In this document: piece by piece, positions 21,811 to 44,000 of the stretch
Layout: each line of letters opens with the position of its first letter
Numbering within the stretch: position 1 is the stretch's first letter
Origin: Candidatus Parcubacteria bacterium
GTDB lineage: Bacteria; Patescibacteriota; Minisyncoccia; UBA6257; 2-01-FULL-56-20
Assembly: GCA_027355945.1 (NCBI GenBank)
Contig: DAIEHA010000007.1
Location: 1-44,499 of the forward strand
Length of the DNA stretch: 44,499 nt
Direction of reading: 5' to 3'
The notes under the pieces: generated by a model
Database searches by the model: none
Seen by the model: only the letters and a program-made list of their open reading frames with translations
What the model was told of the DNA's origin: nothing
Program-made: the position numbers and the translations under genes

Positions 21811-23661
21811 CTACCAGTACTGTGCGGGGCTCTTCACGCCAATGAACGTGTTCTGCCCGGTATAGGCGCCCGAAAGCTGGATGGTGCTCGGCACCGCGAT
21901 TCCCCAGAAGGTCGATCCCGTGTTCGGCGAGGATGTGGCGGTCGATTTGGGGATCTGGATCGGCACAAGGGTCCCCGGATTCGTAAGAAGGGTTGCGCCC
22001 GAACCGTATGCGACGGTCGACGTGGCGTACTGTATCTGCCCCACCGGAATGGTCGAGGTGGTGGAGACGGCGCAGCTCGGATAGGTGGTACACATATTCG
22101 CGCCATACAGGGTCTCGTTCAGACCGACGTTCCCCGTCGATGCAAGGATCGTGGATGTTGCGAGTGTCGGCGTGCTGGAGCCCGGGCTCAAACCGCCGAA
22201 ATTGATCGCGGGGGTATCGAGCTGGGCCGCGAGGAAGCTCGCAACCTTGTTGCCGACCGCAGATTCCGTAAGCGGGCTCGATGACCCGTTATGGTTCGTC
22301 GCTTGCGCGCTCACGAGCCAGTTCTGATTGTAATATTGCGTATCGCTCGCGGTCGTACCGTCCGTGGGGTCTGCGACGTACCAAAGCGGGAAATAGCAGG
22401 TCCATGTCGCACTGATGGAGCTCGATCCATTGCACGATGCGGCATCCTGCGTACAGGTGACGGGCCACGTGGAGGATCCCACCGCCTCGGGGTAGCAATT
22501 ATCAGGATTGTAATTCGGTCCGGTCTGGCACGCTGCCTGGCCAATGCCCGAACGATACACGTTGATGAGGGCCGAGGTGATCTCCTGTCCTCCGGTGATC
22601 GTCTGACAGCTGTTATCGTCCGATACGGTGAACTTCACTGCGAATCCGTTCGTCTGCCCGTTGGGCACCGTGAGCGCAAGGGGGTTCGTGCTTCCGTCGG
22701 TGTTCAGAAGGCTTATGCTCGACGATGCGATCGTGGGAGCCACGCTGCTTATGGCGTATGTGGACGTCGCTCCCTCCGCACCACCCAATGCGGGAAGTCC
22801 GTGTTGATCCACGACGTATCCATAGGAAGGATAGGAACCGTCGGGGCGCGGCAGCGGGGTCGTATAGGAACAGGTGGGATTCAGGGTCGTCGTTGCGGAG
22901 GTGCAGTATGTCCCCGCGGGACCGCAGACCGAACCCGTGAAGTCGTTGGCTTTACAGACGAAAAGCTGAATGGTGTCGGTTGCTCCCGTGAACGTGTCGG
23001 TATCCGATGCGACCGCCGTCCAGCTGATGAGCGTACCGGGGTTCACCGGGCCGGTGTTCGAGATGGACGCGAAGATCGGAGGATGGTTCACCACGAAAGG
23101 CGATCCCGTCGTATATGTCGGGTTGCATTTGGCGCCGCCGAGATTGTTGTCGCAGATCCACGCATACCATGAATCGAACTGGGGATCGCTGCTCGACGCG
23201 GTATAGGTCGTCGTCGCCGTGGCCGTGCTCGGCGTGACCGCGGATACGCCCCACTGGTTGACGGTGCCGCCGCCGCACGTAGGCGAACCCCCTGACGTAC
23301 CGGGGGTCGGCGTGCTCGTCGATTTACAGAGAAGGAGGTAGTAGCTGTCGTTGTTGGGATCGGTCGCCACGGCATACCACGTCACTTTGCTCCCCACGTT
23401 CGTCGGTGCGGTGGTGGTGGACACCGGATTCTCGTATGCATTCGTCGTCCAGTTGGGCGGCGTATTGAGCACCGTCACCGTCGTCGTCGCCGTGCTTTGG
23501 GCGAACGTAAAGCGGGCATGATAGAGGGCTCCCGTCGTCCAGAAGTTCACCACGATGGCAACGACCGCCACAAGGATGCCCGAAAGAATCACGGCCATGC
23601 TCACGCGGCCCTTCACATCACGGACTCTCTCTTTCCACCAGGCGATCCAGCGAACGATCAT
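21811..23661 (-). CDS. secreted Cys/Thr-rich protein with C-terminal WxL/pilin-like domain (class B)
   Basis: N-terminal hydrophobic segment, two similar Cys-containing Ig-like repeats, C-terminus INFGGLSPG...FWGIAVP...GAYTGQNTFIGV. Confidence 0.75.
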   Translation of the reverse strand: MIVRWIAWWKERVRDVKGRVSMAVILSGILVAVVAIVVNFWTTGALYHARFTFAQSTATTTVTVLNTPPNWTTNAYENPVSTTTAPTNVGSKVTWYAVATDPNNDSYYLLLCKSTSTPTPGTSGGSPTCGGGTVNQWGVSAVTPSTATATTTYTASSSDPQFDSWYAWICDNNLGGAKCNPTYTTGSPFVVNHPPIFASISNTGPVNPGTLISWTAVASDTDTFTGATDTIQLFVCKANDFTGSVCGPAGTYCTSATTTLNPTCSYTTPLPRPDGSYPSYGYVVDQHGLPALGGAEGATSTYAISSVAPTIASSSISLLNTDGSTNPLALTVPNGQTNGFAVKFTVSDDNSCQTITGGQEITSALINVYRSGIGQAACQTGPNYNPDNCYPEAVGSSTWPVTCTQDAASCNGSSSISATWTCYFPLWYVADPTDGTTASDTQYYNQNWLVSAQATNHNGSSSPLTESAVGNKVASFLAAQLDTPAINFGGLSPGSSTPTLATSTILASTGNVGLNETLYGANMCTTYPSCAVSTTSTIPVGQIQYATSTVAYGSGATLLTNPGTLVPIQIPKSTATSSPNTGSTFWGIAVPSTIQLSGAYTGQNTFIGVKSPAQYW

Positions 23662-23714
23662 ATCGGGATTGTTTTATTCATTATATCCCATGTTGTCCCC
23701 AGAAAAAGGCCAGG

Positions 23715-23723
23715 TTATCCACA
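23715..23723 (+). promoter_or_regulatory. perfect DnaA-box 9-mer upstream of the 21811..23661 gene
   Basis: TTATCCACA in the intergenic region; minus-strand TATAAT lies between it and the ATG. Confidence 0.55.
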
Positions 23724-23763
23724 CCTTGTACAAAGTCGCCTCTTTCGGGGCGAATATCCCCTG

Positions 23764-24966
23764 CTATTTATAGCGTATTGCCTCGAGCGGACTTATGGAC
23801 GATGCCCTTCGCGCGGGGAATATTCCCGTAATGAAACCCACGAGAGCCGAGAAAACCGTGATAAATCCGAGGAAAGGCAGCGGGAATGCGAAAAGCGCCA
23901 CCGCAGCACCGCCAAAATGCGTAGCCACAAGGTTTAATAGGTAGTTGATGATGAGACCTCCGGCGATGCCTATGGCCATCCCCGTCATGCCTCCAAGAAA
24001 ACCGACCACGACCGCTTCCGCGAGGAAAAGAAACTGGATGTCCCGGGGCGACCCCCCGATCGTACGCATGACGCCGATCTCCCCCGTACGCTCGAGGAGC
24101 GTCACCGTCATGGTGTTCACCATGCCGATCGCCGATACGATAAGTGCGATACCCCCGAACCCGGCAAGGACCCACTGGACGCCGGTGAAGATCTGGTTTG
24201 CCTGGTCCACCGTCTTCGAAAGCGCCGAGACCACATAGCCGGCCTTCACGATGGCGGCCTGGACGCCGCCCAGATTGCCGCTCGCGTTCACGCGCACCTG
24301 CACTTTGTCGTACTGCTGGATCCCCACCTGGGAGGAAAGCGTGGCGAGCGGGATCATCGCATAGATGGAGGCGCTGTCATTCGTCACCCCCGTCACGGTG
24401 AAATTGCCGTTCAGAGGAACCTGCTCGCTCTGTCCCCCGTTTTGGGCCTGCGTCACGATCCGGAACGATACCGGTTTCCCGATGATCGCCTTCGGATCGC
24501 TCACGCCGAAAAGCTGCAGCGCCGCGCTTGAAAGAATGACGTCGTTCCCGTCCGACGGCTGGTCGGTGAACGGGCTCCCGGCCGCCATGGCAATACCGGC
24601 ATATTTGAAATACGACGCCTGTGAGCCCTCGAGGTCCGTGTTCGCCGAGAGGCCGTTGTAGGTGATGAGCGATTGGAACGTTGCAAGCGGCGAGACGTCC
24701 TGGACGTTCGGGATCGCTTTGAACTTCGCGAGTGCGCCATCGTCGAGGGCCACGGCGCTCGTCGCCGGTGGCGTGACGGTGAGACTGAGCAGCGTATCCC
24801 CGAACACGATCTTCTCGAGCAGGATGTTCTGGAGGCCGAACCCGAGGCCCACGAGCATCACGACCGCCGCAGTGCCCACGCCCATACCAAGGATCGTAAG
24901 CCACGTCCTCGCGGGATTGGTCTTGAACATCCTCGTGGAAAGCTTCAGTGAATCGGCGATCCTCAT
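23764..24966 (-). CDS. MacB/FtsX-family ABC transporter permease
   Basis: RTWLTILGMGVG, large extracytoplasmic domain, GMVNTM..LERTGEIGVMRTIG, FPARRASSISPLEAIRY. Confidence 0.93.
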   Translation of the reverse strand: MRIADSLKLSTRMFKTNPARTWLTILGMGVGTAAVVMLVGLGFGLQNILLEKIVFGDTLLSLTVTPPATSAVALDDGALAKFKAIPNVQDVSPLATFQSLITYNGLSANTDLEGSQASYFKYAGIAMAAGSPFTDQPSDGNDVILSSAALQLFGVSDPKAIIGKPVSFRIVTQAQNGGQSEQVPLNGNFTVTGVTNDSASIYAMIPLATLSSQVGIQQYDKVQVRVNASGNLGGVQAAIVKAGYVVSALSKTVDQANQIFTGVQWVLAGFGGIALIVSAIGMVNTMTVTLLERTGEIGVMRTIGGSPRDIQFLFLAEAVVVGFLGGMTGMAIGIAGGLIINYLLNLVATHFGGAAVALFAFPLPFLGFITVFSALVGFITGIFPARRASSISPLEAIRYK

Positions 24967-24985
24967 GGTTATAGTATAAAACGGT

Positions 24986-26296
24986 TCAGAGATACATGCC
25001 CTGCCCTATGAGCTTCTCGAGGTACCAACTTACATACCGCGCCGTGTCCGGATCGAGGCCCATGCCATCCCCCTCGAAGGGAGACTTGAGGCGACGGCGG
25101 AAATCCTCGGACTGGATGAATCCGCGAATGCGGAATTTCAGGAGCTCGTCCATACGCGCGATGTGCTCCGGCGGGATGCGAAACCCGCATTCCCGCATGA
25201 GATCCTCGCGCACCTCGGCGATACGGTCCCCTTGGCGCAGCGAGGCCACTTTCGCCGTGAAGTTATCGCGATAGGCGCGGATGTCCCTCGCCTCTTTAAG
25301 TACGATGTTCAATTTCTCCTCGAAAGTCTCCGCCCGATGCCGATCGATCTCCGGACCGCCTTCGTCCACGGATCTCGTGAGCTTGTCCACGAACCCCTCG
25401 TCCGTGAGCTTCCCGTCGATGAACATGCCGACCGTCCGCTCCAATCGCTCGATCTGATCGAACCCGATGTCCTGGGTGAGGAAGTTCACGACGCTCTTCA
25501 CCCGCAGCTCCTCCGGCGATGCATACGGATAGATGCGTGCCAACTTCTCTATCTCGGAAAGGATCGACGTGCCGGGATCCGTCTGCTTGATCTGCTTCTT
25601 CTCCGGGTTCACCACCTCGCGCTCCACGCCTCCGTCCTTCATATGATACACGCGGTGCGCGTACGGCAAGAGCTTCGCATCATGGGTGACGAGAATGACG
25701 GTCTTCTGCTGTTTTATGTTGATCTCCTCGAGCATGCCCATCACCTGGTCCGCCGAAACGCTGTCGAGGTTGCCGACCGGTTCGTCGGCGAAGAGGATCT
25801 CGGGATCGTTGATGAGCGAGCGGGCGACGGCGACGCGCTGCTGCTGTCCGCCGGAGAGGTCGGTCGACCGCTTGCGCGCCTGCTGTTCCACGCCGAACTG
25901 CTTGAGCAGCTTCATGGACCGGATATAGCGTTCCGCGGGCGGCACGTTCGCGAAGATGAGCGGCAGCGCGACGTTGTCGATCACGCTGAGCGAGGGGATG
26001 AGGTTGAACGATTGGAAGATGATCCCCACCGTGCTCCTTTGGAATCGCACCATGTCCTTCACGCCGTACTTATATGGATTCTCCCCTTTCACGAGGATCT
26101 CCCCGGACGACGGCGGAAGGATCCCGAGAAGGCTGTACAGCAGCGTTGATTTCCCGCAGCCCGAAGGACCGAAGAGGATTATGTATTCCTTGGGATAGAT
26201 CTCGAGCGTCTCTCCGCGCAGGGCGTTGTATTCGTTCGATTTGCCCTGGTTGTAGATGACCTTGATGTTGTTCACCCTGATGATCGGTTCAAGCAT
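24986..26296 (-). CDS. MacB/LolD-type ABC ATPase with about 200-aa C-terminal extension
   Basis: GPSGCGKST, FQSFNLI, LSGGQQQRVAVAR, ADEPVGNLD, VTHD; start ATG 26296. Confidence 0.92.
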   Translation of the reverse strand: MLEPIIRVNNIKVIYNQGKSNEYNALRGETLEIYPKEYIILFGPSGCGKSTLLYSLLGILPPSSGEILVKGENPYKYGVKDMVRFQRSTVGIIFQSFNLIPSLSVIDNVALPLIFANVPPAERYIRSMKLLKQFGVEQQARKRSTDLSGGQQQRVAVARSLINDPEILFADEPVGNLDSVSADQVMGMLEEINIKQQKTVILVTHDAKLLPYAHRVYHMKDGGVEREVVNPEKKQIKQTDPGTSILSEIEKLARIYPYASPEELRVKSVVNFLTQDIGFDQIERLERTVGMFIDGKLTDEGFVDKLTRSVDEGGPEIDRHRAETFEEKLNIVLKEARDIRAYRDNFTAKVASLRQGDRIAEVREDLMRECGFRIPPEHIARMDELLKFRIRGFIQSEDFRRRLKSPFEGDGMGLDPDTARYVSWYLEKLIGQGMYL

Positions 26297-26306
26297 GATG
26301 ATTCGA

Positions 26307-27788
26307 TTATTTTTTGGCGCCTCCCGAGAAGTTTCCGAGCCATCCGAATGTCCCCTGGAAGTTCTCGAGGATGATATCCACGATGCTCTTCTGCTGCTGC
26401 GGCGTAAGGAGCACGTAGTCCTCCGAGCTCGTCGTGTTCCCATCCACGTCGGTACAGGTCACCCAGTATTTATACACGGTCGCAGGCGTGAATGTCGTGA
26501 TGACGTCCACGTGCTTCACGACGGGGACGGTTTCGAGCGTCGTCGTCACGACGTCCGCGCCGCTCCCGCTCGAATATGAAAGGAAGCACATCGATGGCTC
26601 ATCGGTCGCCCACGAAATGACCGTCTGGACGGTCGTGTCCTGTCCCGGATAGAGCGTGGAGTCGTTGCTCACCTGCGAGATCACCGGAGGATAGATGTTC
26701 TTCGTCGTCACGAAGTAGACGGGGTCGCTCTTCACCGTATCGCCCGCCTGGTTCTGCGCGATGATGACGGCCGAATAGCGCGTCTGGTAGACGAGTCCCG
26801 CGATCTGGAGAATGTGCGTCGTAAGGTACGATGGATCCCCGATCGAGAGCGATTTGTTGTTCGCCATATCGGTATAGACGATCTCACCCGCCGACGGCAT
26901 GGGCGTACCCCAGCTTATCGTGACGTCGTGCTCGCCCACCGTCACGACGTGAGGATTGATGATCTGAGGAAGGACCGATTTGGTCGTGAACGTGAGATCG
27001 GCGCTCTCTCCCGGCGTGCCGATCCCTCCTGCGCGCGAGGATACCATGTAGTGATATTCCGTCGCCGGCGAGAGTCCGTAGACCGTCACCGTGTGCGTCT
27101 TCCCGAGCCCGTTCTGATCCGTTTCCTGCCGCGGATACGGGTTCGCATTCGAGGGATTGTACTCCGCGGCGGAGGCGATGGATACCGTGCCATCCGCGCT
27201 CTGATCGGTGTTCCAGACGACCGTCACATTATCCGTGCCGATGGTGAGCTGAGGGATACCCAGGATGTTCGGCGGCCCGATGCTTGCTTTGGCCTGCTGA
27301 TTCAGGGCTCCCGCGATCGCCTCGAGCGCCTGCGTGCTCGTGATCTGCTGGATGATGGAGAGCGCCTTTGCGGAAAGCTGCTGCTGCTGCGGATTCGTGA
27401 TGTTCGAAAGTTTGGAAAGGTCGATGGTGCTCGAGGTCGTGAACGTATAATCCCCCGAAACGTGCTGGTTGCCGTTCGCATCGGTGGAGCGTATGCGGAA
27501 ATAATACGTCGTCCCCGGATCAAGATTGGGAATGACGACCGAGTGCTGGGTGCCGAGAGGCCCCTGGTTCCTCATCCCGCAATAGTTCGTATCCTGGCTG
27601 AAGTTCACAAAACTGTCGGTGTTGGAATCCGTGGTCCATGTGACCGTGGTCGAGGTGGCGGTCACGCCCGCAACGACCACGTTCGAGATGTTCGGCGAGG
27701 TGTCCGCAAGCGCCCGCACGACGACCGCCGCGGACATGGCCGCGGCACCCATAAGCACCCCTATGGCGAACAGCGAGCGCGCCTTCAT
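26307..27788 (-). CDS. secreted protein with four fibronectin type III-like repeats
   Basis: Signal peptide; repeated V-x-W-x-T...H-x-V...L-x-P-x-T-x-Y pattern (TVTWTTD..HSVVIPNLDPGTTYYF etc.); start ATG 27788. Confidence 0.85.
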   Translation of the reverse strand: MKARSLFAIGVLMGAAAMSAAVVVRALADTSPNISNVVVAGVTATSTTVTWTTDSNTDSFVNFSQDTNYCGMRNQGPLGTQHSVVIPNLDPGTTYYFRIRSTDANGNQHVSGDYTFTTSSTIDLSKLSNITNPQQQQLSAKALSIIQQITSTQALEAIAGALNQQAKASIGPPNILGIPQLTIGTDNVTVVWNTDQSADGTVSIASAAEYNPSNANPYPRQETDQNGLGKTHTVTVYGLSPATEYHYMVSSRAGGIGTPGESADLTFTTKSVLPQIINPHVVTVGEHDVTISWGTPMPSAGEIVYTDMANNKSLSIGDPSYLTTHILQIAGLVYQTRYSAVIIAQNQAGDTVKSDPVYFVTTKNIYPPVISQVSNDSTLYPGQDTTVQTVISWATDEPSMCFLSYSSGSGADVVTTTLETVPVVKHVDVITTFTPATVYKYWVTCTDVDGNTTSSEDYVLLTPQQQKSIVDIILENFQGTFGWLGNFSGGAKK

Positions 27789-27839
27789 GTTGTTATGATA
27801 CCACACGCACGGGCATCGCCCCGTGCCACACCTCCTCGT

Positions 27840-29897
27840 TTATGGCCACGGCAGCGGAAGTTTCACGCCTACGAACGAATTCATCCCTGTGTACGTGGTC
27901 GCCATCTGCCCCGTGGGGATCGCAATGCCCCAATAGAACGTGGAACTTTCCACCGCGATCGTGGATGTGGGTTTCGGAAGATCGATCGCCACCGTCGATC
28001 CCGGATTGGGAAGCAACGCCGTTCCTGATGCATAGGAGATCACGGATGTCGCGAAGTGCTGCTGTCCCACGGGGATGCTGAACGACCCGTTCACCATGTT
28101 CGTGCCGTAGACGTCCACGTTCATCGCGACATTTCCCATCGATTGGATGACCGATGCAGGACCAAGGCTCGCGGTGCCGGAACCCTGCGTGAGGTTCCCG
28201 TAATTTATCGTCGAGGTGGTCTCGAACGCAAGGAGCGAGAGCAGCGTCACGCCGGTGGAGGATGCCGTGCCCGTAGCGCCGGCCGAGTCCACCGCAAGCA
28301 TCGAAGCCGACCAGGAATCCCCCGCCCACGGCGTCGATGCGTCCGTCGGCTGGGCGAAATACGCTACATGGAAATTGCAGGTCACGTTACAGGACGTTCC
28401 CGCGCAGTTACTGAATGAACAATCGCTCGGAACGCCTTGATAGCAATCATTCGGATCCGGCGTGCATGCCGGCCCGAGACTCGTGCGATAAAGGGTGCTC
28501 GTGACCGTCTGGACATCGGTATAGCCGTTGCCATCACTCACGGTTGCGGTCGCGGTGATGAGCGTCGTGGTCCCCTCGATGAGCGCGATGCTCTGTCCGC
28601 CGTTCAAGGTGACCGAGTTTATCGTCGGAGGGACGTTCCCGATGGTGACCTCCGGGTATGCGGCATAGGAGGTAAAGGCGGTGCCGTTCGATTCCACGGC
28701 GCGAAAGCAGAACGTGGACCCTCCGGGCGCACTGTTGTCGATGAGCGCGAAGTCCCACTTGCCATCCTCTCCGGCAGGAATGGCGCCCTGCGAATTGGTG
28801 AACGGGTTTGCTTCCCCATAGGTCTGATTCACGATCGTGTTCGTCCCGTCGATGGGATCGGTGGATGTGGGAATGAGAGGATCGCCGTTCGCGGGGGTGG
28901 GGTTGTTGTAATATTCGATGTATCCCGTCGAGGTCGCCACGTCGGCATACGCCCCCGTCGGCGCCGCGCACGTACCCGTCCCCATAGTAGCCATCTGGAG
29001 CTTGAAGGAACGGTTTCCCGCCGCAAGCGGATTCGTCGTCACATTGATGAGCATGCGGAGGCGGAAGGGCGCCGTAAGCGATGCGAGTACCGTCGATGCA
29101 TTCTGCAATGCGAGCGGGGGCCCGACGCCTGCGCTGTCCGTGTTCGAGAACCATCGGAATGCCGACTGCGTGAACGTGATCTGCGCCCTGAAGCTCACGA
29201 TCTGCCCGATCCATGCGCCCGATGCCGCCGCGGTGCCGACGGTGGAATAGGTCCCTGTTGCGTTCACCACGCGGTCCGCGCCGCTGTAGGTCGCACGGGT
29301 ATTGTGACTGCCATTCACGTTCGCAAAGTCATTTTCTTTCGTGAAGGAATTGCTCCAGGAAGAGAATGTCGTTTGCGCCACGATGGTGGTGGCGGCGAAG
29401 ATAAGTTCATCGGGCTGGGTCGTCGTGATGGATACGCCGTTCGTCGCCGTACCGGTGCCCGTCGTGGAGGTCGCCTGATCGAGCGGATTGGAGACCGATA
29501 GCCCGCTATATTCGTAAATATGGAGACCGAGCTGCAGCGAGGTTGCCGTCGTCACCGTGACCGCGGTCGGTTCGGCGGAACCCGCCAACTTATAAAAAAT
29601 GGCCTGGCTCGCCGTACCGCTCATATTGAGCGCCGCGGACCAGCCGGTCGGCACGTTGATGCCCGTATTTCCGCTCGCGCCGAGCACCGCGATCAGAAGA
29701 TCCCCGGAGGTCGGCGTCACGCCGAACGTCGCCGTCACGGTGTTCGCACTGCCGCCCGCGCTCGTATTGCTCGCCGTCTGCACGAGCGTCGTCGTGGCGT
29801 GAGCGAACGGCCACAGCACGAATATCCGGCTTACCGCAAGCCATGCGAGGAGTAAACCGGCAACAATGATGCCAAGGGAGTAGATGCGGCGCATCAT
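27840..29897 (-). CDS. secreted multidomain protein with C-terminal WxL/pilin-like domain (class B)
   Basis: Signal peptide (FAHA); C-terminal 260 aa paralogous to the 21811..23661 product (INYGNL...YWGIAIP...YTGMNSFVGV). Confidence 0.8.
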   Translation of the reverse strand: MMRRIYSLGIIVAGLLLAWLAVSRIFVLWPFAHATTTLVQTASNTSAGGSANTVTATFGVTPTSGDLLIAVLGASGNTGINVPTGWSAALNMSGTASQAIFYKLAGSAEPTAVTVTTATSLQLGLHIYEYSGLSVSNPLDQATSTTGTGTATNGVSITTTQPDELIFAATTIVAQTTFSSWSNSFTKENDFANVNGSHNTRATYSGADRVVNATGTYSTVGTAAASGAWIGQIVSFRAQITFTQSAFRWFSNTDSAGVGPPLALQNASTVLASLTAPFRLRMLINVTTNPLAAGNRSFKLQMATMGTGTCAAPTGAYADVATSTGYIEYYNNPTPANGDPLIPTSTDPIDGTNTIVNQTYGEANPFTNSQGAIPAGEDGKWDFALIDNSAPGGSTFCFRAVESNGTAFTSYAAYPEVTIGNVPPTINSVTLNGGQSIALIEGTTTLITATATVSDGNGYTDVQTVTSTLYRTSLGPACTPDPNDCYQGVPSDCSFSNCAGTSCNVTCNFHVAYFAQPTDASTPWAGDSWSASMLAVDSAGATGTASSTGVTLLSLLAFETTSTINYGNLTQGSGTASLGPASVIQSMGNVAMNVDVYGTNMVNGSFSIPVGQQHFATSVISYASGTALLPNPGSTVAIDLPKPTSTIAVESSTFYWGIAIPTGQMATTYTGMNSFVGVKLPLPWP

Positions 29898-29943: not shown

Positions 29944-31959
29944 TTATTTCACCACAAGATTGAACTGGCAGAAGTTGGGGAGGACCCTCCCGTCCGTTTG
30001 CCGCTCTTTATATATGACGATCACGCCGTATGAGCCCGGTACCGTTGAAGGGGTTATGGTAAGACCGATCGTGTCGATCCCGGACGGCCCTCCGGGGACT
30101 ACGGTCCCGGTCACGCCCGTAGGCAGCGACCCAAGCGAAGCCTGATAGATCGGTGCGACCATGGGCGCCGGGGGCGGGATCGGAGGCGGAGGATACATCG
30201 TTGCCGACGATGCCGTTGCCGACGAGCTTGGCGCAACCGCCGGAGGCGGAGGCTGCGCGACCATCGAAAGGACGTAGGACACGCTCCCTCCGGGATATGC
30301 CTCGTTCGAGAACGGGGTAACGGAACATCGCTGTTCCGCCGAAGGATCGAACACATCCCGGAGCGCGTTCACGGGGGGCGTCGAGGAGGCGGATGCCGCG
30401 GAAGATGAGCTTTGTGAGAACACCGTGCTCGTGGAAGCCGATTGGTCCGTACCCGGAGCTATCGTACCGTTCGGCGCGTCGGCATAATCCACCTCAACCC
30501 CTATCGAATCAAGGTATACCTTCGGGGAATCCGTGGCGTTCAATCCCACAAGCGCCACTTGGAGATGCTGAAGCTCCTGCCATGAATAGATCGGTATGGA
30601 ATACCGCGCCGTCTGCCAATTCCCCGCGTTCACATCCACGACCGGCTGCCACGTGACGCCATCCGTCGAATACATGATGGCGAGAAAATCCCCCGGTGCG
30701 CCAGGCGGAAGCGTGATATTCTGGAACACCGATGTGTTCATTGTGATGGGAGCGGGTGCGGTAGTGGTCGAGGGGATGCCCTCTGTAAGCGAAGAGGTTG
30801 CTGTGGCAGCAGTGTTCGTCGACGATGCGGGCGATGCAGGCGATGCGGGAGCGGGAGCCGCAGCCGCAGAAGACGATGGTGCGCTGTCGTGCGCCGCAAC
30901 AACCGAGGATGCGTTTTCGGCAAACGCGGTCGGAACGATATTGAACAGCCACGACGTTCCAGATGACGATGCTGTCGTAGGTGACGGTGCGGGGGTCGGA
31001 GCGGGGGCGGGGGTTGGGGTTGGGGTTGATGCTGCACTAGATGCGGACGTAGGAGCGGGTGCGGGAGCGGGCGTGGGTGCGGGAGCGGACGTAGGAGTAG
31101 GCGTAGGTGTGGAGCTTGCACTAGATGCGGGCGCGGGCGCCGATGAAACAGTATTCGTATTCGCGGTCGCAGGGGTCGAAATCGGCGCGGGCGCCGATGT
31201 CTTCGTCATGTCGTTGCTCGCGGAAGCTGGAATGGAATTCGGGGAAGAGGTTGCGGTCGAAGCGGGCGCGGACACGCTTCCGGAATCCGTTGTGGATGCT
31301 GATGGCGCGCCTCCCGCCGCCGGAACGGAAACGGAGGATGATGCTATTGCAGCCGTGGACGATGCGAGGATCTTCGAACCTGTCGATGATGAGGCGCTCC
31401 CTTCCGTGGCAGAAGAAGTGGCTGCCTGTCCCGTGATCGCTCCATCCGTCGAGGTTGCTATGGGAACAGCCTCTGCCGATCCCCCTCCGGCCGCAGCGGG
31501 AATCGGCGCAATGGCCGCATACCAGGAAAGGACGAGCGACGCCGCACGGAACTGCTTCGCCTCAAGGTCCGCGATGTTCGTCTGTCCCGAAAAATTCCCG
31601 CAGAACATCTGCGCGTGCCCCGTCGAGAACACCGCCGAATTGAGCGGGGTGAACGCCGCTGCAGGCGCGCCGGGCGGAAGATCGGGCGCACCGAGCGCAT
31701 TCTGGACGTTGTCCCACGAACCAAGGCACGATGAAGGATAGAAATCCGCGGTGCTCGCGAACCCTATCATGAAGGAATATGCGAACCCGCCCGCTGCAAG
31801 CACCCCGCACATCGCAAGGAACCATGCTTTATGCGTTTTGATGAACGCGCGGACGCTCCGCGCGCTTATCTCGAACTGGACGCGATACGTCCGCTCGCGA
31901 AGCATCACCGTCCCTCCCCGGGAACTCTCTCGTATATCCCTTATCTTTTTTCCCTTCAT
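29944..31959 (-). CDS. membrane-anchored protein with long Pro/Ala/Ser/Thr-rich insert
   Basis: N-terminal TM, globular segments flanking about 270 aa of low complexity, C-terminal Ig-like segment. Confidence 0.75.
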   Translation of the reverse strand: MKGKKIRDIRESSRGGTVMLRERTYRVQFEISARSVRAFIKTHKAWFLAMCGVLAAGGFAYSFMIGFASTADFYPSSCLGSWDNVQNALGAPDLPPGAPAAAFTPLNSAVFSTGHAQMFCGNFSGQTNIADLEAKQFRAASLVLSWYAAIAPIPAAAGGGSAEAVPIATSTDGAITGQAATSSATEGSASSSTGSKILASSTAAIASSSVSVPAAGGAPSASTTDSGSVSAPASTATSSPNSIPASASNDMTKTSAPAPISTPATANTNTVSSAPAPASSASSTPTPTPTSAPAPTPAPAPAPTSASSAASTPTPTPAPAPTPAPSPTTASSSGTSWLFNIVPTAFAENASSVVAAHDSAPSSSAAAAPAPASPASPASSTNTAATATSSLTEGIPSTTTAPAPITMNTSVFQNITLPPGAPGDFLAIMYSTDGVTWQPVVDVNAGNWQTARYSIPIYSWQELQHLQVALVGLNATDSPKVYLDSIGVEVDYADAPNGTIAPGTDQSASTSTVFSQSSSSAASASSTPPVNALRDVFDPSAEQRCSVTPFSNEAYPGGSVSYVLSMVAQPPPPAVAPSSSATASSATMYPPPPIPPPAPMVAPIYQASLGSLPTGVTGTVVPGGPSGIDTIGLTITPSTVPGSYGVIVIYKERQTDGRVLPNFCQFNLVVK
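30975..31145 (-). repeat. PT/PA dipeptide-coding degenerate tandem repeats
   Basis: Encodes STPTPTPTSAPAPTPAPAPAPTSASSAASTPTPTPAPAPTPAPSP; tgcactagatgcgg occurs at 31033 and 31117. Confidence 0.75.
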
Positions 31960-34362: not shown

Positions 34363-34399
34363 ATTATATCTAAGTATACCACACCTCTTCGCCGCTCCC

Positions 34400-36088
34400 T
34401 CATCCTGTCCAGTTGTACAGCATGATACTGAGATCGGGGAGATCAACGACGCCATCGCCGTTCAGGTCTCCCGGGGACCATGCCTCTCCCCAATGGAAGA
34501 GGAGTATGGAAAAATCCACGAGATTCACCTTCCCATCGCCGTTCAGGTCTCCTTTTCCTCTGGGTTTCGGCACCGTGCCCACACCAAGATAGGATATGCT
34601 CGAAAAAGGGCTCTGCGTGTAGGCGGGAAGGAACGCCCTCGCTTTGATCTGATAGGTATCGGCCGGGAATCCTCCCGTTGAAAGACCGTAAGACCACGCT
34701 CCCGTCGCATTCGCGGTCGTGGTCGCCGTCACGGGAGCCTGTGCGCCGCTCTGGCTCGTCACCACGATTTCCACGGTCGAGGATGGTTCGGCGACGCCCG
34801 CGATCGTCGCGGTCCCTCCGATACCCACCGTGCTCGTGGCAAATGAAAGTCCCGGGGGGAGCAGGATGTTCGTGATCTGGTTCGTCGTCCCCGAAATGAG
34901 CGTGATCGTCGTCGTATACGAGGCGATCGCGGTCCCACCCGTACCGTTCTCAAGGAGCGTGAATGAATATGTCCCTTCCGGCATCGGCGGGATGGTGACG
35001 GAGAAATTCCCCGCGCTGTCCGCGATGGTGGAAGCGCTCGGCAGCAGAACGCCGTCCTCGAGCACCGAGATACTGACGTTCGGCAGCGCGATGCCCGAGA
35101 TGGCGAGCGCCGGCTCCGCCGGCCCTGCAGGATATGGCGCACCGCCGCCTCCGCCGCCTCCGCCTCCGCCCGAATAGGATTGGCCCGACGTCCCGCCGCC
35201 CAACCCGGTACCCGTCGGATCGCCCGCAATGAAAGAGATGACGTAATCGCTCGTATCGGTGTTCCCCGTAAAATCCATGCAGCGCGCATAGAGCGTATAC
35301 GTGGTCCCCTTGGTGATGCCGGTGATCGTCGTATATTGGAACGTCCCCGTATAGTCGCTCGAAAACGTCCCCGTCATCGCGCTATAGCTCACCCCCGAGG
35401 ATGTCGCATACCGACACGTGGAATACGTATCCGCATTGAACGATACGACGACCCCGAGAACGTTCGAGGGGATCGTGCCCGTCGGCAGCGCATTGGAGAG
35501 GACCGGCGGCGTGGTCCGATACTGGTTCACGTCGACACCGACCGCGGGAAGGATCGCGACCATCGCCGAACCGTAATCGATCGCGGTCCCCGAAGCGGCA
35601 TTCGTATCGATAAAGATGCGATAGGACGCCGTCGATGATGGATTGGTTATCTCATATCCTCCCGGTATGCCCAAGATCATTTTCACATATGCCCCCGGAG
35701 GAACGGAGGCTCCCGACGGCATGGCAACCGTGATCGGTCCCGTCCCCGGAACGATGGAGACCCCCGCATCCGAAATTCCCGCGGAAGGCCCCACCGCCCA
35801 CGGCACGAATCCGCCGGTCGGTGAAGACGTGGAGACCGCGAACGAAACATCCGTGTAATTGAAGGAGGGGTCCAATAAGAATGCATCGTTCTCGAACGAA
35901 ATGACCGCGGAGCCCGATGCGGGGATCCCTCCGGGGACGCCGAACACGATCGTGTGGGTCGTCGGCCATGAGGGCCGCGAATCCCCGATCGTATCGCTCA
36001 CATGGGACATGACCGCGGCATGCGCGAACTGCGGGATCGCGGACGCGCATATCCATATCGCCGCCAAAAGCAACAGATATCGTTTCAC
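34400..36088 (-). CDS. secreted dockerin-domain protein whose N-terminal domain is shared with the 37689..38822 subunit
   Basis: Signal peptide (FAHA); C-terminal DLNGDGKVNLVDF / DLNGDGVVDLPDL; poly-Gly linker; two Ig-like domains. Confidence 0.85.
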   Translation of the reverse strand: MKRYLLLLAAIWICASAIPQFAHAAVMSHVSDTIGDSRPSWPTTHTIVFGVPGGIPASGSAVISFENDAFLLDPSFNYTDVSFAVSTSSPTGGFVPWAVGPSAGISDAGVSIVPGTGPITVAMPSGASVPPGAYVKMILGIPGGYEITNPSSTASYRIFIDTNAASGTAIDYGSAMVAILPAVGVDVNQYRTTPPVLSNALPTGTIPSNVLGVVVSFNADTYSTCRYATSSGVSYSAMTGTFSSDYTGTFQYTTITGITKGTTYTLYARCMDFTGNTDTSDYVISFIAGDPTGTGLGGGTSGQSYSGGGGGGGGGGAPYPAGPAEPALAISGIALPNVSISVLEDGVLLPSASTIADSAGNFSVTIPPMPEGTYSFTLLENGTGGTAIASYTTTITLISGTTNQITNILLPPGLSFATSTVGIGGTATIAGVAEPSSTVEIVVTSQSGAQAPVTATTTANATGAWSYGLSTGGFPADTYQIKARAFLPAYTQSPFSSISYLGVGTVPKPRGKGDLNGDGKVNLVDFSILLFHWGEAWSPGDLNGDGVVDLPDLSIMLYNWTG

Positions 36089-36544: not shown

Positions 36545-37640
36545 AGAAGAAGAACAGGATCATCAGGAATATGATCGCGAAGACCACCGTCGCCACGAGG
36601 ATGAAGACAAGGCGGGAGAACGGAAGCCTTCCTTCAGCGAGGAGTCGCTCCTCGGCGGAGATGGATGCTGCATTGCCCTGGCGGCCCCCGGTCATGGCCG
36701 CGATCCGCCTCCTCACATACGCCCTCACGCCCCAGATGAATCCGAAGACGATAAGCACGAGGATGATGAGAAGTGCGAGTATCGGCACGATCGGGATGAT
36801 CCAGAAGGAGGTCTCCTGGGACACCGTCTTCTGGGCGTTATCCCCGTAGGTAAGGGACATCACCGCATCGAACCTCCCCATCATGAACCCTCCGCTCGTC
36901 CAATTCACCGTGAATGTCCGGTCCTGTCCCGGAAAGATCGCGTCATTCGAATCATTCATGATGACCGTCCCCACCTTCTGTCCGAACATGTTCGTGATAT
37001 CGATCGGGCCGCGCGGGCGGAGCAGGACATTCCCGGTATCGGCCGCATCTGCCGCAAACGTCACGTTCGCATCCTGATAAAGACCCTTGTCCGTGGAGAA
37101 AGAACGTATCTCTGCCGTCTCATTCGCCTGTCCCGCGATCCTGAAATCGAGGAGCGAACCCACCTCATACCCGATGCCGGTCCCCGTAAACTGAGGGCGC
37201 GTGGCGCCATAGGTCACGAAAATCGCCCCATAATGGCCGCCGGGGGCGGCGGTCGAGGGGACGTTCACGGTGAACGGTACGATGACGGCCCCGCCTGCGG
37301 GGATGGTGATCACCGGACTCTGGATGCTCACCCAGGAAGTGATGCCGTATTCGGGCACCGAGGAGCTGCTGAACACCGGTTCGCCACCGCTGTTGAGGCC
37401 CGAGATGTCCTTCACGCTCACCGTGTAGGTCCGCGATACGGGATCCGGATTCGTGACGGTGATCGATGTCGAAAACTTATCGCCGGGATTCACGATCTGC
37501 TGGAAGATCGCGGGCTGCACCTTCACCCCTGTCGCATTGGCTCCCGGGGTTCCCGGAGCGGACTGCGCGAATGCGATCCCTCCAATAAGAGTCGCGACGG
37601 CTGCACCGGCAAGGACCGCTCCCCACGCCTTTTTCTTCAT
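36537..37640 (-). CDS. DUF916/WxL-interacting-like membrane-anchored protein
   Basis: VKVQPAI..VNPGD..ITVTN, ITSWVSI..IPAG..VPFTVNVPSTAAPGGHYGAI, DTGNVLLRPRG; two C-terminal TM helices. Confidence 0.8.
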   Translation of the reverse strand: MKKKAWGAVLAGAAVATLIGGIAFAQSAPGTPGANATGVKVQPAIFQQIVNPGDKFSTSITVTNPDPVSRTYTVSVKDISGLNSGGEPVFSSSSVPEYGITSWVSIQSPVITIPAGGAVIVPFTVNVPSTAAPGGHYGAIFVTYGATRPQFTGTGIGYEVGSLLDFRIAGQANETAEIRSFSTDKGLYQDANVTFAADAADTGNVLLRPRGPIDITNMFGQKVGTVIMNDSNDAIFPGQDRTFTVNWTSGGFMMGRFDAVMSLTYGDNAQKTVSQETSFWIIPIVPILALLIILVLIVFGFIWGVRAYVRRRIAAMTGGRQGNAASISAEERLLAEGRLPFSRLVFILVATVVFAIIFLMILFFFFG

Positions 37641-37688: not shown

Positions 37689-38822
37689 TTAGAAGGTCGG
37701 GGTTGCGACGTAGATGAGGTTGTTCGTGTAGTCGTTCGCGGCAGGCTGCAATGTACCGATCTCGATCCGATAGGCCACCTTCGCGGTTCCCACGTTCTGC
37801 GTCGTTCCGTCCGCAGGACCGTTCCATGCGAACACGGTGAGCGTGGAGGTGGGATTGATGCTGCCGGCATAGAGCGGCGTGGACGTACCGAAGCTTGGCG
37901 CACCGACGATCGAACTGCTCACATCGTCGCTCGTGACGCCGAGATGGCCGTAGGTCGCAGGCTGATTGATGACGTTGCTCGGCGCGGCCCACGGACTCGG
38001 CGTGGATGTCGCATTGCCGTTATCGAAAAGATGGATGGTGTTCCCCGTCTGGCTCGTAAGGTCCTGGTCCTCGTGGACGGTCACCGCAAAGCCGTTTGCG
38101 GCGTTCGTCGTCACATACAGCTGCTGACCGAGCTCGGCGTGGGTGTTCGGTGAGATCACGCCGAATGGGACCGTGGTCGAGGTGGATGCGCCCGTCGTCG
38201 TTGCGCCGTTTCCAAGCGTCGTGGAGGTCGCAAGCCCCGCCACCGTAAAGGTGAAGGTCGTAGCAACCGCCGCCGTCACATTGACGCCATTCACGATCGC
38301 GACGCGGGTTGCCGCGGAATTCGTGCCTGCCGCGACGTTTATCACATAGGACCCGGTGCTCGTCGGGTTCGTGATCGTATTATTCAAAACTTTGAGGGTG
38401 ACCGTTCCCGCGGGGATCGTTGCGCCGCCGCATACGGTGAATACAAGGGAGTTCGTGGTGGTCGCCACGCTGACATTGTTACCTCCGTTGTTACAGGTAT
38501 ATCCGGTGATGGTCATCCCGGTCGAAGTCACATCTGCAAGCACGACGCCGCCTACGTTGCCGAATGCGCTCGTGTTGGGATCGAAGGTATACGTGATCGT
38601 CTGCCCCGTCAACGTGCTCGTCGAATCAGTGAATACTATCGTATGATTCGCTGCAAACCCCGGGCGGGAATCGGACAATGTGTCGCTCACTGAAGTAAGG
38701 CTCACTGCGTGGGCGGTGTTCACAAATCGAAGCATCGTGCTCCACGAAACAAGACTTACGATCAGACCTGCTGCGACCGCGATTGCGACATCGCGATTTG
38801 TCATCGTCCTTTTACTAAACAT
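37689..38822 (-). CDS. secreted two-domain WxL/pilin-like protein (class A), candidate major subunit
   Basis: Signal peptide (TAHA), Thr-rich beta domains, VPFGVI..VTTNAANGFAVTV..., C-terminus DYTNNLIYVATPTF; own promoter. Confidence 0.75.
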   Translation of the reverse strand: MFSKRTMTNRDVAIAVAAGLIVSLVSWSTMLRFVNTAHAVSLTSVSDTLSDSRPGFAANHTIVFTDSTSTLTGQTITYTFDPNTSAFGNVGGVVLADVTSTGMTITGYTCNNGGNNVSVATTTNSLVFTVCGGATIPAGTVTLKVLNNTITNPTSTGSYVINVAAGTNSAATRVAIVNGVNVTAAVATTFTFTVAGLATSTTLGNGATTTGASTSTTVPFGVISPNTHAELGQQLYVTTNAANGFAVTVHEDQDLTSQTGNTIHLFDNGNATSTPSPWAAPSNVINQPATYGHLGVTSDDVSSSIVGAPSFGTSTPLYAGSINPTSTLTVFAWNGPADGTTQNVGTAKVAYRIEIGTLQPAANDYTNNLIYVATPTF

Positions 38823-38889
38823 TGGATACTCTTTGTTGAAAGAGGGGTTTGCTTTTTTATTCGACTTGTATTCATTCTATCACAACAGG

Positions 38890-38920: not shown

Positions 38921-38952
38921 GGCGCTCAAGAATGCGCGCACTCGGTCCGCGA

Positions 38953-41059: not shown

Positions 41060-41066
41060 GGCGTCA

Positions 41067-44000
41067 TCAGAAGACGGGGGTTGCGATATAGATCACGTTA
41101 TCGTTGTAGTTCCCGTTCACCTGCGTCAGTCCCGCTTGAACGCGGTATACGACATTGATCGTGCTCGTGGCGGGTCCGCTCGAATATCCTATCTCCGCCG
41201 GCGTGGACGTGAGCGCGGCATATGAATCGTCCGCGGCGAACCGCGTCGATCCTCCCGAGAGCACCGGACTTCCCGGATGATACCCGTAGCAGGCCGTTGA
41301 GGTCGCGGTGCACGCCGATGACCATGGCAGCGGACTTCCGTTCGTGGCATCCACGCCCGGCAGGATATAGCCGCGTCCGTTCATGAGCGGCGCATCCTGG
41401 AACGCGTACAGTTCGAACCCGTTGGGCGCATCGGTCGAGATGAGAAGCTGCTGCGCCGCCATGGAGCTTGTGGCGATCGTGAGCGTTCCAAACGAGATCC
41501 CCGCCGGTGTGGATGATGCGGTCGTTACGACGCCGTCGGTCGAAGTCCCTTGCGGCATGCCGCTCACCGTAAAGGTGAGGAGCGCCCCTTCCACCGCAAG
41601 ACTTGGATACGATGAGGTGCTGTAAAGTGCCACGGGTGCTCCGGTGCCGTTGTTCACAAGGCGGAAGAAATAGGTCGCGTTCGTCGTCGCACCGTCCCCG
41701 ACGATGGTGAACTCGTACTCGGTGATGGCGCTCGCCTGCTGCGCAAAGGTCGAGGAGCTTATTCCCGATGTGTTGTGCGTACCGCATCCCGGTCCCACGC
41801 CGCTCGCGCATGCATTCGAGTCTGAAAGCACCGCGGTCGAGATCACTGCATTATCCGTACCCCCCGTCGATGTGGCATAGCACCATTGCGACGCAGAGGT
41901 GCAACTCCCCGTCTCCGCGACATACCCCACCCCTGAGGAAAAATTGCTATACGTGGAATATTGAAGTCTGAACTTCACATCGCTCCCCGAAACATTGTTC
42001 GCCTCCGCTACCGCCACGCGAAGCTTGATGATGCTCCCGTTCTGCGCGGTCGAGGGCGCGACATTCTCCCCCGCGAGCGGGTTCACCGGCGTCTCATCGT
42101 TCGCGTCGCCGTAAAATCTCCAGTTCGCCGATTCCGGGTTGAACGGCGCCGTCGTCACGGCAGGATAATATACGTATGAATCGAGTGGCGTCCCGCTGCT
42201 CTTCACCATGCGGAAGCAATACGATGCCGAGGAGCTCGTGCTGTTGTATTGGAGCGCCCAATCATATTCGATGTTGTCCCCGATAAGCGAACGATAGGGG
42301 TTCGCCGCGGATGGATTGGCATCCGTATACACACCGTCGCGCGTGGATACGGAGAGCAGGAGCGTGGTGAGCGGCGTACCGTTCGCCACGCCCGCATTCG
42401 CATATCCGGTCCATGGCCCCGCGCCGCCGATCGCGCCCACGTCGCTCCATGATGCGACCGCGCTGCACGACGTCGTCATCACCCCGTACTGCAGCTTGAA
42501 TGCCTGCGTTGATGTCGGGAGCACCGCGCCGCCGAGCGTCACCGCCATGCGAAGACGCAGCACGCTTCCGTTCGTCGGAGGAGAATCCGCGGCCGTGATC
42601 GCCATATTCTCCCCGAGCGTCGACGTGCCCGCGGGCCACGCCGCGGTCGGCGTGAGCGCGTTCGCATTCGTATACCACCGGTAATAGTTCTCTGCGAACG
42701 TGGAGCTCGCGGCGATCACGCTTATCTGAGGATAGACAGTATACGTACCGATCGACGCCCCGTTGTTCGTCGCTTGAAAGTAATATGTCTGCCCGAAGGA
42801 AGCGCCCTCCGTCGCCTGGATGTTCCATTCGAGCTCCGTGAATTGATTCGTGTTGAGCGTGATCACCGGCGCAGGGGTCGTGCTTTCCAGCATGAAGCCG
42901 CTCACGAATGCCGCTGCCGCCGGAGTGAGAAGATTGTGGGTCGGATCAAGATCTGCGAAATATCCCGATGGACATTCGCGGAACGCCGCGGCGATCGTAG
43001 AACAGGTGGGGTCGACGGGCACGGGGGTCCACGGCCCCGCCGTGGAGGTCGCATATTCCAGACGGAACGCCGCGCTTGCCGCAACATTCCCGTTATTGGA
43101 AAATTCCATGCGCAGCCGCACGCTCGTGTCCTCTGTCGTGCTCGTCGGGGTCGTTTCCGCGGCGCGCCATGTCGCCGAGGGAACCGTGTCCACCTCGGGG
43201 TAGTTCACGTAGCCGTCAAGTGAGGCCCCTGCGCCGGTCATCATGCGGAAACAATATGCCGCACCGGAGGATGCATCGTTGTCCTGCACGACGAAATCCC
43301 ATTCGCCCGCCCCGTTCGCGGGAATGGGGTTCGGGTTCGTCGGCGAGGGATTCTGCTCCACGTACGATTCGGGGACGGTGGAGCTCGCGAGGAGCGTTGC
43401 GGCGAGCGTCGTACCGTTCGTCGTGCCCGCATTGCTGTAGCCGCGCCACGGCACGGACGATCCTGATGCTCCGACATCCGCAAAATTCGCCGATGGCACT
43501 CCGCTGCACGATGCCGCGGTTCCTTTGGGTGCATATTGCAGCTTGAACGATTGCGTGGAACTCGGGAATGCCGCGCCGCCCACCGCGATATTCATCACGA
43601 TCCTCACCGCCCCTCCCGAGACGGTTCCTGTCGCCGCAACGTCCGGCGCGGCGAGCGAGGATGTTGGTTGGACCGCGTCGGCATTTTTGTATATCTGGAA
43701 ATCCTGCTGAGTGAGCGTGGCCGAGGGCATTGCGGTGAACCCCCCAAGCCCCACCCCCGTCGCAGGTCCCACGGTGCCCGCCGCAACCGTGACGTTCGCC
43801 GAGGGATTCGCGATCGTAAGCTCGAAGGTCTGGCCTCCGGGAGAGGAGGATGCGATATCCACTTTTGCATAGATGCAGACGTTCGCGGTACCCACGGGCA
43901 TGGTGCCCGTCACGGTCGCTTGTTCCGATGCATTGAATGAGCCTCCTGTTGCGTTGAAGAGGGTCGCTCCCGCAGGGATGCTCGAGGTGGCGCAGGTGGT

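Follow-up and report, generated by a model that had tools for sequence, protein, structure and literature searches.

Patescibacteria, also known as the Candidate Phyla Radiation (CPR), account for a large share of bacterial diversity; most of them are attached to a host, and surface fibres are thought to mediate the contact. The Pam pili, described in a preprint, are filaments of a cultured CPR bacterium built of the pilins PamA (55.3 kDa) and PamB (38.7 kDa), in which a nine-strand N-terminal sandwich is followed by a linker that is donated to the truncated immunoglobulin-like (Ig-like) C-terminal domain of the neighbouring subunit; the operon also encodes the membrane-anchored, PapD-like chaperones PamC and PamD as well as PamE, PamT and PamR, and the PamB and PamA models are PDB 25QA and 25PZ (PMC13278184 / 10.64898/2026.03.03.709456). 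In the Elr pilus of Enterococcus faecalis, likewise described in a preprint, ElrD and ElrC are WxL pilins, ElrA is the tip, ElrB is an LPxTG base and ElrE is a membrane-anchored DUF916/DUF3324 chaperone (10.64898/2026.10.17.759780). According to cryo-electron microscopy (cryo-EM), polymerisation in such systems takes place by donor-strand exchange (10.64898/2026.10.17.759780; PMC13278184). Here we describe a set of genes in a 44,499-nucleotide stretch of DNA from a Candidatus Parcubacteria bacterium (assembly GCA_027355945.1, contig DAIEHA010000007.1, positions 1 to 44,499; the window), which code for secreted proteins ending in one of two kinds of C-terminal domain (class A and class B subunits) and for secreted partners with two Ig-like domains and a membrane helix. 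The region probably encodes a chaperone-assisted donor-strand pilus system with a Pam-like architecture and a WxL/Elr-like way of working, in a Patescibacteria host of the Paceibacterota/Minisyncoccia type. It would thus be a further example, with extra parts, of a kind of system first described in the 2026 preprints. Genes are named below by their lower window coordinate; all subunit and partner genes under study, and all their neighbours with coordinates above 17.7 kb, are on the minus strand.

The locus resembles the Pam system, as far as that is described in the available text, in its CPR host, in the two-domain layout of the pilin, in the lack of an usher and in the mass of the pilin (38.4 kDa for the product of gene 37689, 38.7 kDa for PamB). 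Each operon codes for several proteins that have two domains and a membrane helix at the C-terminus, and in both systems a chaperone strand is predicted to enter the pilin C-terminal domain. This likeness is one of layout, drawn from the published description of PamA-D and not from a comparison of sequences or structures (PMC13278184). In contrast, Pam pilins are reported mainly from Saccharimonadia and Microgenomatia, whereas the window and its closest relatives are labelled Paceibacterota/Minisyncoccia, and the available text of the Pam preprint states no counterpart of the class B ends or of the partner encoded by gene 20733.

With the Elr pilus the locus has in common, according to the available text of that preprint, a membrane-anchored chaperone of DUF916 lineage whose hairpin strand (as predicted here) lies in parallel with the subunit's C-terminal strand, and an acceptor domain that is C-terminal in small and large subunits alike, the large ones having variable N-terminal domains. 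The geometry predicted for the 37689-36537 complex (see below) is that described for ElrE-ElrD (10.64898/2026.10.17.759780) and for WxLIP-WxL (PMC10599100). The locus differs from Elr in that no match to the WxL or DUF3324 models was obtained, that Phe or Tyr stands at the expected Trp in class A, and that a conserved dockerin-cohesin pair is present instead of LPxTG and sortase, neither of which was among the Pfam hits of the window. The WxL/Elr system has been stated to be confined to Bacillota in a preprint whose screen covered RefSeq reference proteomes at Pfam gathering thresholds (10.64898/2026.10.17.759780); such a screen would miss the window proteins. In their available texts neither the Pam nor the Elr preprint mentions the other system, and a keyword search retrieved no literature joining the Candidate Phyla Radiation with WxL.

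Two other groups of donor-strand fibres can be compared. Chaperone-usher pili share with the locus donor-strand complementation followed by exchange, the use of the first and the hairpin strands of the chaperone (in the predicted complex), and a likeness in fold, with Pap, Fim, Csu and Cfa subunits among the structures that best match the class B end. They differ in that here there is no outer membrane and no usher and the chaperone is membrane-anchored; Usher and PapD_N were absent from the Pfam hits of the 44 window open reading frames (ORFs) scanned and of the partner families. TasA fibres are donor-strand fibres of monoderm bacteria and archaea, and TLP-1a and TasA rank among the leading fold matches of the class B end (E=8.6e-3 and 3.4e-2, weak), but they need no dedicated two-domain chaperone.

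Class A subunits and their partners

The small class A gene (37689-38822) encodes a protein of 377 amino acids (38.4 kDa) with a signal peptide, an N-terminal beta-sandwich (approximately residues 42-176), a conserved linker that is a candidate donor strand (residues 177-189, window 38256-38294) and a C-terminal domain, the putative acceptor (residues 190-377, window 37689-38255). The large class A gene (41067-44498), whose 5' end is outside the window, codes for more than 1143 amino acids with repeated N-terminal domains; its C-terminal domain (approximately 41067-41603) was recognised by the class A hidden Markov model (HMM) at residues 966-1143 with E=1.1e-43. Direct comparison (blastp) aligned residues 190-377 of 37689 with residues 974-1143 of 41067 at 30% identity (E=2.7e-12). 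The former protein ends in ...YTNNLIYVATPTF and contains FGVI...TTNAANGF, the latter ends in ...YNDNVIYIATPVF and contains FGTL...STDAPNGF. The two class B proteins, 21811 and 27840, were likewise found to be homologous (31% identity between residues 242-612 and 307-681, E=5e-29); both carry IPVGQ..ATS..NPG, together with FWGIAVP and YTGQNTFIGV in 21811 and with YWGIAIP and YTGMNSFVGV in 27840. The division of the C-terminal ends into two classes, proposed in a preliminary description of the window, is thus borne out by homology within each class, and a translation check found all class A, class B and partner motifs quoted there in the ORFs named.

The class A family comprised 416 proteins at E<=0.001, and the class B family 475. 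Pfam and NCBIfam scans of class A and class B proteins gave no family, and among the matches listed for the two families there was no Pfam domain and no name beyond 'hypothetical protein'; the named matches listed belong to Paceibacterota, Minisyncoccia and other Patescibacteria. Identity of the small class A protein to the top ~50 of 120 matches listed is approximately 75-80%.

Three partner genes accompany the class A genes. P1 (36537-37649, 370 amino acids) is the downstream neighbour of 37689 and has its membrane helix from about residue 284, whereas P2 (38953-40062, 369 amino acids) and P3 (40055-41059, 334 amino acids), which have the same architecture, are situated between 37689 and 41067. 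P1 and P2 carry the motif GGHY and P3 carries GDYH. As read from the sequence, these proteins and the fourth partner, 20733, all have a signal peptide, two Ig-like domains, a conserved FW-x-x-P motif and a hydrophobic C-terminal helix followed by basic residues; the second Ig-like domain is present by profile alignment. P2 matched P1 with E=3.6e-49, and P3 matched the other two class A partners with E=5.8e-21 and 5.4e-21, while the E values of 20733 against the three were 1.2e-5, 1.3e-4 and 0.004 (blastp). These values agree with the earlier distinction between three similar partners beside class A and a divergent one after class B. The partner HMM recognised P3 with E=3.7e-85.

By the sequence of their first domain the class A partners probably belong to the DUF916/WxLIP lineage, as had been supposed. 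PF06030 (WxLIP_PGBD, formerly DUF916) matched 14 of 15 close relatives and 29 of 43 diverse ones at E<=0.01, the best value being 9.9e-10. EfmWxLIP1 came first among PDB sequences, with an E value of 7.5e-9 for the 43-row profile and of 0.0017 for the 15-row one. For one relative the source gives the name 'P pilus assembly chaperone PapD'. This is sequence evidence for a kinship of the CPR chaperones with the DUF916/WxLIP chaperones of enterococci and lactobacilli, a link absent from both 2026 preprints in their available texts and one with implications for the stated restriction of the WxL system to Bacillota.

Species-representative genomes were scanned with a 15-row partner alignment, which yielded 240 relatives of P1; the counts of loci given here and below refer to the best 80. 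The number of chaperone relatives suggests that genes for pili of the Pam type are widespread in Paceibacterota-like lineages too. The class A gene pair is conserved: a class A gene was found directly upstream of the partner gene in 73 loci (71 by script, and L079 and L080 by reading of the table), with a median gap of 124 bp. In five of the seven other loci the DNA upstream extends for less than 520 bp, and L024 and L032 are without the pair. A five-gene cassette headed by the large form (large class A, P3, P2, small class A, P1) was present in 18 loci, and the small class A gene with P1 alone in 53. Class A domains are almost always terminal (93 of 94 end within 5 residues of the protein C-terminus) and close with the motif Y-x3-[LVI]-x-[YF]-[IV]-[AV]-[TVA]-P-x-[FY], near-invariant in the form Y-x3-L-x-Y-[IV]-A-T-P-x-F. 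The proteins that carry them are either small (about 375 amino acids) or large (430-1381 amino acids). The labels of nearly all loci are those of Patescibacteria groups, among them Paceibacterota, Saccharibacteria, Kaiserbacteria and Nomurabacteria. A single locus with the full class A and partner set, L070 (contig CAZVIU010000020.1), is labelled 'uncultured Gammaproteobacteria', which may be a binning or labelling error; the labels of the rest are of Patescibacteria type or unspecific.

In the AlphaFold2 (AF2) model of 37689 (mean predicted local distance difference test score, pLDDT, 85.9) residues 42-176 form an N-terminal beta-sandwich of about nine to ten strands, the linker is a coil of low pLDDT and the C-terminal part is a beta domain, a predicted arrangement that fits the layout of the Pam pilins. 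Foldseek searches with the full-length model returned generic two-domain MSCRAMM adhesins with template modelling (TM) scores of 0.2-0.27, which are uninformative for the C-terminal domain. No Pam chain was among the rows listed there or among the PDB sequence matches of the class A profile, the copies searched apparently being without 25PZ and 25QA. Complex formation was predicted for residues 185-377 of 37689 with residues 30-283 of 36537 (P1) in three runs and with 3 controls. The median score was 0.89 (0.89, 0.88 and 0.89 in the single runs), as compared with 0.00 for the best of the 3 controls; the score mark is met by 58 of 80 solved complexes and by 2 of 110 mismatched pairs, and is rough here since own alignments were used. 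The three runs agreed in at least 90% of the contacts, and the pLDDT of the partner was at least 81.

The residue pairs with the lowest predicted error (subunit:partner) were 373:163, 371:161, 370:160 and 368:158. The constant offset between residues 367-373 of 37689 and 158-164 of 36537 indicates that the two strands run parallel. Further contacts were predicted between 192 and 163 and between 190-191 and 42-44, the predicted interface of 36537 consisting of residues 148-166 and 36-48. As contacts are made to both edges, the strand G158-L166 would be placed between the first and the last strands of the 37689 C-terminal domain, and the first strand of P1 is predicted to clamp the other edge of that domain. 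The predicted donated strand is the return strand (158-166) of the P1 hairpin (residues 136-172, window 37134-37244), and not the GGHY strand of the same hairpin. It is thus predicted with high confidence that 36537 completes the C-terminal domain of 37689 by donor-strand complementation. Beta-strand complementation had been put forward in the preliminary description together with an all-against-all prediction of four C-terminal domains and four partners; for the pair of that set which was run, 37689/36537, the result favours the proposal, and with the conserved gene order it upholds the idea of cognate subunit and chaperone or anchor pairs for class A.

Among 68 homologues of 37689 the last strand was the most conserved segment, at 3.69 bits. 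Next came an N-terminal strand (residues 40-52) with 3.34 bits, the NGF region with 3.31, the strand that opens the C-terminal domain with 3.11 and the linker with 3.08, as compared with 2.25 bits for the rest of the N-terminal domain. By analogy with the Pam pilins the conserved linker between the two domains is the likely donor in polymerisation, a role that was absent from the preliminary description.

Several observations weigh against this picture of class A or blunt the evidence for it. The complex score is a measure of model confidence and may partly reflect likeness to solved chaperone-pilin complexes; it indicates likeness rather than binding. The conserved N-terminal strand, which in the AF2 monomer is inside the N-terminal domain, makes a second candidate donor. 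The class A profile matched PDB sequences at chance level alone (flavivirus envelope, E>=0.44). PF06030 hit the window partners below its Pfam cutoff of 27.3 bits (36537: E=0.0013, 19.2 bits; 38953: E=0.015, 15.8 bits, profile positions 17-118 of 121), although these matches extend over almost the whole profile, and did not match 40055 or 20733 in the Pfam scan, the generic model fn3_5 fits the partners about as well, and PF11797 (HBD/DUF3324) was never matched by the second domain of the window partners or their relatives.

The nature of the subunit ends has to be considered separately. WxL domains contain two conserved Trp-x-Leu motifs (PMC9772566), and the ends had been taken for WxL domains in which Tyr or Phe replaces Trp. 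The sequences do not support this: at E<=10, PF13731 (WxL) matched none of the four ends in the window, nor any of the 35 members of the class A family that were scanned. Both Trp-x-Leu motifs are missing; the inferred, unaligned counterpart places are taken in class A by NGF-x-[VL] and Y-[IV]-A, and in class B by W-G-I and F-[IV]-G. By their primary structure, then, neither the class A nor the class B ends are WxL domains, and the proposed replacement has as its basis the position of the motifs and leads from a protein language model. In that model the nearest named cluster was WxL for both the class A end (0.87; 44% of members with PF13731) and the class B end (0.80; 20% with PF13731), with SCPU at 0.79, all below 0.9 and leads only. 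What the locus does share with WxL systems is a domain that forms the very C-terminus of proteins both small and large, encoded next to a gene of DUF916 lineage (in the 73 loci mentioned above) and, in the predicted 37689-36537 complex, the completion of a beta-sandwich by a parallel partner hairpin strand. Could this then be a true WxL cluster of the Bacillota family, diverged past detection by Pfam, with Phe or Tyr for Trp? The DUF916/WxLIP lineage of the partners, the language-model leads for both ends, and the C-terminal domain with aromatic residues at the two motif positions would suit such an origin. It is nevertheless unlikely, given that PF13731 never matches and that an N-terminal domain, a linker donor and a C-terminal domain make up a layout different from that of ElrD, where an N-terminal donor strand precedes the WxL domain. 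A tblastn search of plasmids with the PF06030-carrying relative P0205, in which a real WxL cluster was sought, gave no match. Of the earlier interpretation as a whole, the pairing of class A with its partners and the strand complementation were retained, and the identification of the ends as WxL domains found no support in the sequences.

Class B subunits and the partner 20733

The first class B gene (21811-23661) encodes 616 amino acids with 16 cysteines, and its C-terminal, pilin-like domain comprises approximately residues 475-616 (window 21811-22239). The second (27840-29897) encodes 685 amino acids, with a C-terminal domain at approximately 27840-28361 (class B HMM E=3.8e-47). The divergent partner gene (20733-21737), which encodes 334 amino acids with a signal peptide, two Ig-like domains, a membrane helix and the motif GQYQ, starts 74 bp downstream of 21811. 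The 20733 family contains 690 representative clusters at E<=0.001. Its profile aligned with that of the 36537 family at 98.4% probability (E=6.5e-15, hhalign) over 211 columns across both domains, including the hairpin region, and only through this homology to the P1 family can the 20733 family be tied to the same partner lineage. Class B relatives were present in the seven closest loci only (L001-L007), about 7 kb downstream of P1.

The C-terminal domain of class B was modelled by AF2 with a mean pLDDT of 84.3. When this model was compared with known structures by Foldseek, 14 of the first 15 rows listed were donor-strand fibre subunits (TasA-like proteins, the PapG pilin domain, CsuA/B, Fim, CfaB and PapH). 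The domain is C-terminal in both window proteins (it reaches residue 616 of 616 in 21811 and 680 of 685 in 27840), and its aromatic end motifs, W-G-I and then F-[IV]-G, are invariant in a 36-row alignment. The order subunit, partner, dockerin protein, cohesin protein is found downstream of both 37689 and 21811. Since the domain is C-terminal with a predicted pilin-like fold, the partner is homologous and the gene order recurs, class B with 20733 and its own dockerin and cohesin genes most likely constitutes a second, parallel system of the same type, a conclusion that is less certain than that for class A.

The pairing of 21811 with 20733 is based on adjacency in one window, homology of the partner and a weak pilin-like fold match, and there are points that speak for restricting the pilus system to class A, the class B ends being then complete, unrelated Ig-like domains and 20733 standing beside 21811 without binding it. 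The fold matches of class B are weak (none at E<=0.001, TM 0.32-0.52), and 27840 has no adjoining partner. None of 45 members of the 20733 family matches PF06030, and the adjacency of 21811 and 20733 was seen in this window only; the 80 loci, which end before the expected position, contained no 20733-type partner. Moreover, when the profiles of the two kinds of C-terminal end were compared (hhalign), no kinship was detected (probability 2.2%, 24 columns around the FG motif). Against such a restriction stand the homology of the 20733 and P1 families over both domains with the hairpin, the prevalence of donor-strand subunits among the first fold matches listed, the terminal position and invariant end motifs of the class B domain, and the dockerin-cohesin order downstream of both pairs. 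A system confined to class A is in our view doubtful, and we retain a parallel class B system as the most likely reading. A common origin of the class A and class B ends was considered as well and is without sequence support, as the profile comparison indicates. If the parallel system exists, the class B family and the 20733-type partners, with the sizes given above, would form a large unannotated second branch.

Some observations concern the parts of the subunits in front of the C-terminal domain. The large class A protein 41067 and the class B protein 27840 have a repeated middle domain in common (E=1e-16 and 5e-14), which suggests that variable 'payload' domains are exchanged between the classes. 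The middle region of large class A relatives contains a conserved WRWY..ETP motif. In the large class A proteins of about 440 amino acids, the signal peptide is followed by three short repeats of S-[ST]-x-F plus a hydrophobic residue (e.g. L013, 4856-6178; L031, 4816-6111).

Dockerin and cohesin proteins and the proposed assembly

The dockerin protein encoded downstream of P1 (34400-36088, 562 amino acids, Dockerin_1 E=5e-7) combines a pilin N-terminal domain and a linker with a C-terminal dockerin, without an acceptor domain; its residues 22-185 matched residues 37-182 of 37689 with E=5e-9 (blastp). The cohesin protein (31956-33872, 638 amino acids, Cohesin E=8.6e-11) has a hydrophobic membrane segment near residue 521. 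Both are conserved: the 34400-type architecture was found downstream of the subunit-partner pair in 61 of the 80 loci (e.g. L002, 11436-13166), and homologues of the cohesin protein in 59, usually with a hydrophobic segment past the domain (e.g. L002, 13614-15611). The second pair in the window, directly downstream of 20733, consists of a dockerin protein (19564-20883, Dockerin_1 5.4e-10), which also contains Cys-rich DUF4215 repeats and a Big_6 domain, and of a cohesin protein (18563-19531) that carries a membrane helix at its C-terminus and whose Cohesin value of 9.9e-5 was just under the cutoff. The two dockerin proteins show 36.5% identity to each other in their C-terminal halves (E=1.3e-34), and the two cohesin proteins are alike with E=1.5e-15.

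Variants of this module were seen in other loci. A membrane helix takes the place of the dockerin in L034 (11127-12665) and L079 (11341-12249), and in L010 (2596-4824) a pilin-like N-terminal domain is fused to a cohesin (residues 453-593) with a hydrophobic tail. These variants indicate that the products of the dockerin and cohesin genes are functionally linked. By analogy with known pili, the composition of 34400 suggests a candidate terminator or base subunit that would plug the last groove, and that of 31956 suggests a candidate membrane anchor for the dockerin protein. A dockerin-ended, pilin-like protein and a membrane-anchored cohesin following the subunit-partner pair are, as far as checked, unreported; the available main text of the Pam preprint mentions neither 'dockerin' nor 'cohesin', nor DUF916 or WxL (PMC13278184). 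Conservation of the two genes suggests a way of fixing the fibre on the cell without the use of sortase.

The following assembly is proposed for class A. A subunit whose sequence ends in the putative acceptor domain is followed, as the product of the next gene, by a secreted partner with two Ig-like domains and a membrane helix. In the predicted complex the partner inserts its hairpin return strand (158-166 in 36537) between the first strand of the subunit's C-terminal domain and the last, parallel to the latter, and could in this way keep the subunit ready for assembly at the membrane. The linker of the next 37689 subunit would then displace the chaperone strand, as in PamA/PamB, and the fibre would grow. 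On similar analogies the large class A protein 41067 may be the tip and a candidate adhesin, P2 and P3 may serve as chaperones or base factors for the other subunit, and 34400 would end the fibre and dock through its dockerin on the membrane-anchored cohesin 31956.

Static surface display, in which the partners would be permanent membrane anchors completing the C-terminal domains of monomeric adhesins or enzymes and no fibre would be formed, is improbable: a 'platform' anchor model of this kind was earlier proposed for WxLIP (PMC10599100), the membrane helix of the partner and the predicted strand complementation are as compatible with an anchor as with a chaperone, a further non-covalent anchor pair (dockerin-cohesin) occurs in many of the proteins here, and three partners for two class A subunits exceed the need for a catalytic chaperone, but the Elr preprint, in its available text, revises the platform model with cryo-EM fibres and ladders stable in sodium dodecyl sulfate (10.64898/2026.10.17.759780), the Pam preprint reports solved CPR filaments whose two-domain pilins have this size and layout too (PMC13278184), the 37689 linker is conserved like a donor strand, and the high identity of the small class A proteins among the top matches listed suits a structural subunit.

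Beyond the pilus system itself, it may be suggested tentatively that Pam-type and WxL/Elr pili represent two branches of a single, ancient chaperone-pilin system in bacteria that have no outer membrane, a system which uses membrane-anchored chaperones of the DUF916/WxLIP lineage and is not confined to Bacillota. In Patescibacteria this system would have at least two branches (the class A/GGHY type and the class B/20733 type), a terminator with a donor linker and no acceptor, and dockerin-cohesin anchoring in place of sortase. What the locus adds to the described systems is the DUF916 link between CPR and Bacillota, the dockerin-cohesin module and a large second family pair.

Neighbouring genes

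The G+C content of the window is approximately 60%. Its left 17 kb consist of housekeeping genes (TruD, deformylase, Mur ligase, RuvA, CTP synthase and others). A patch of lower G+C content is located at 4001-6000 (0.475, as compared with ~0.60 elsewhere), where the ORFs 3825-4583 and 4878-5510 are without a Pfam match. From 17.8 kb as far as its right end the window contains a run of genes, all on the minus strand, whose products are secreted or anchored in the membrane.

Within this run a gene for a small heat-shock protein (Hsp20, 33760-34455) is situated between the dockerin and cohesin genes. The cohesin gene is followed by a gene for a low-complexity protein of 671 amino acids with a long middle part rich in Ala, Pro, Ser and Thr and without a family match (29944-31959). 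Downstream of 27840 there is a gene for a secreted protein with several FN3 or purple-acid-phosphatase-N-like repeats (26307-27806), and then, still between the two class B genes, genes for an ATPase of the ATP-binding cassette type (24986-26443, ABC_tran 3.8e-30) and a MacB/FtsX-type permease (23764-24966, MacB_PCD 1.2e-21, FtsX 1.6e-14). The ATPase ORF overlaps the upstream FN3 gene by 137 bases, thus its true start is probably further in. At the left end of the run, beyond the second cohesin gene, a secreted protein with a lamin-tail domain is encoded (17797-18597).

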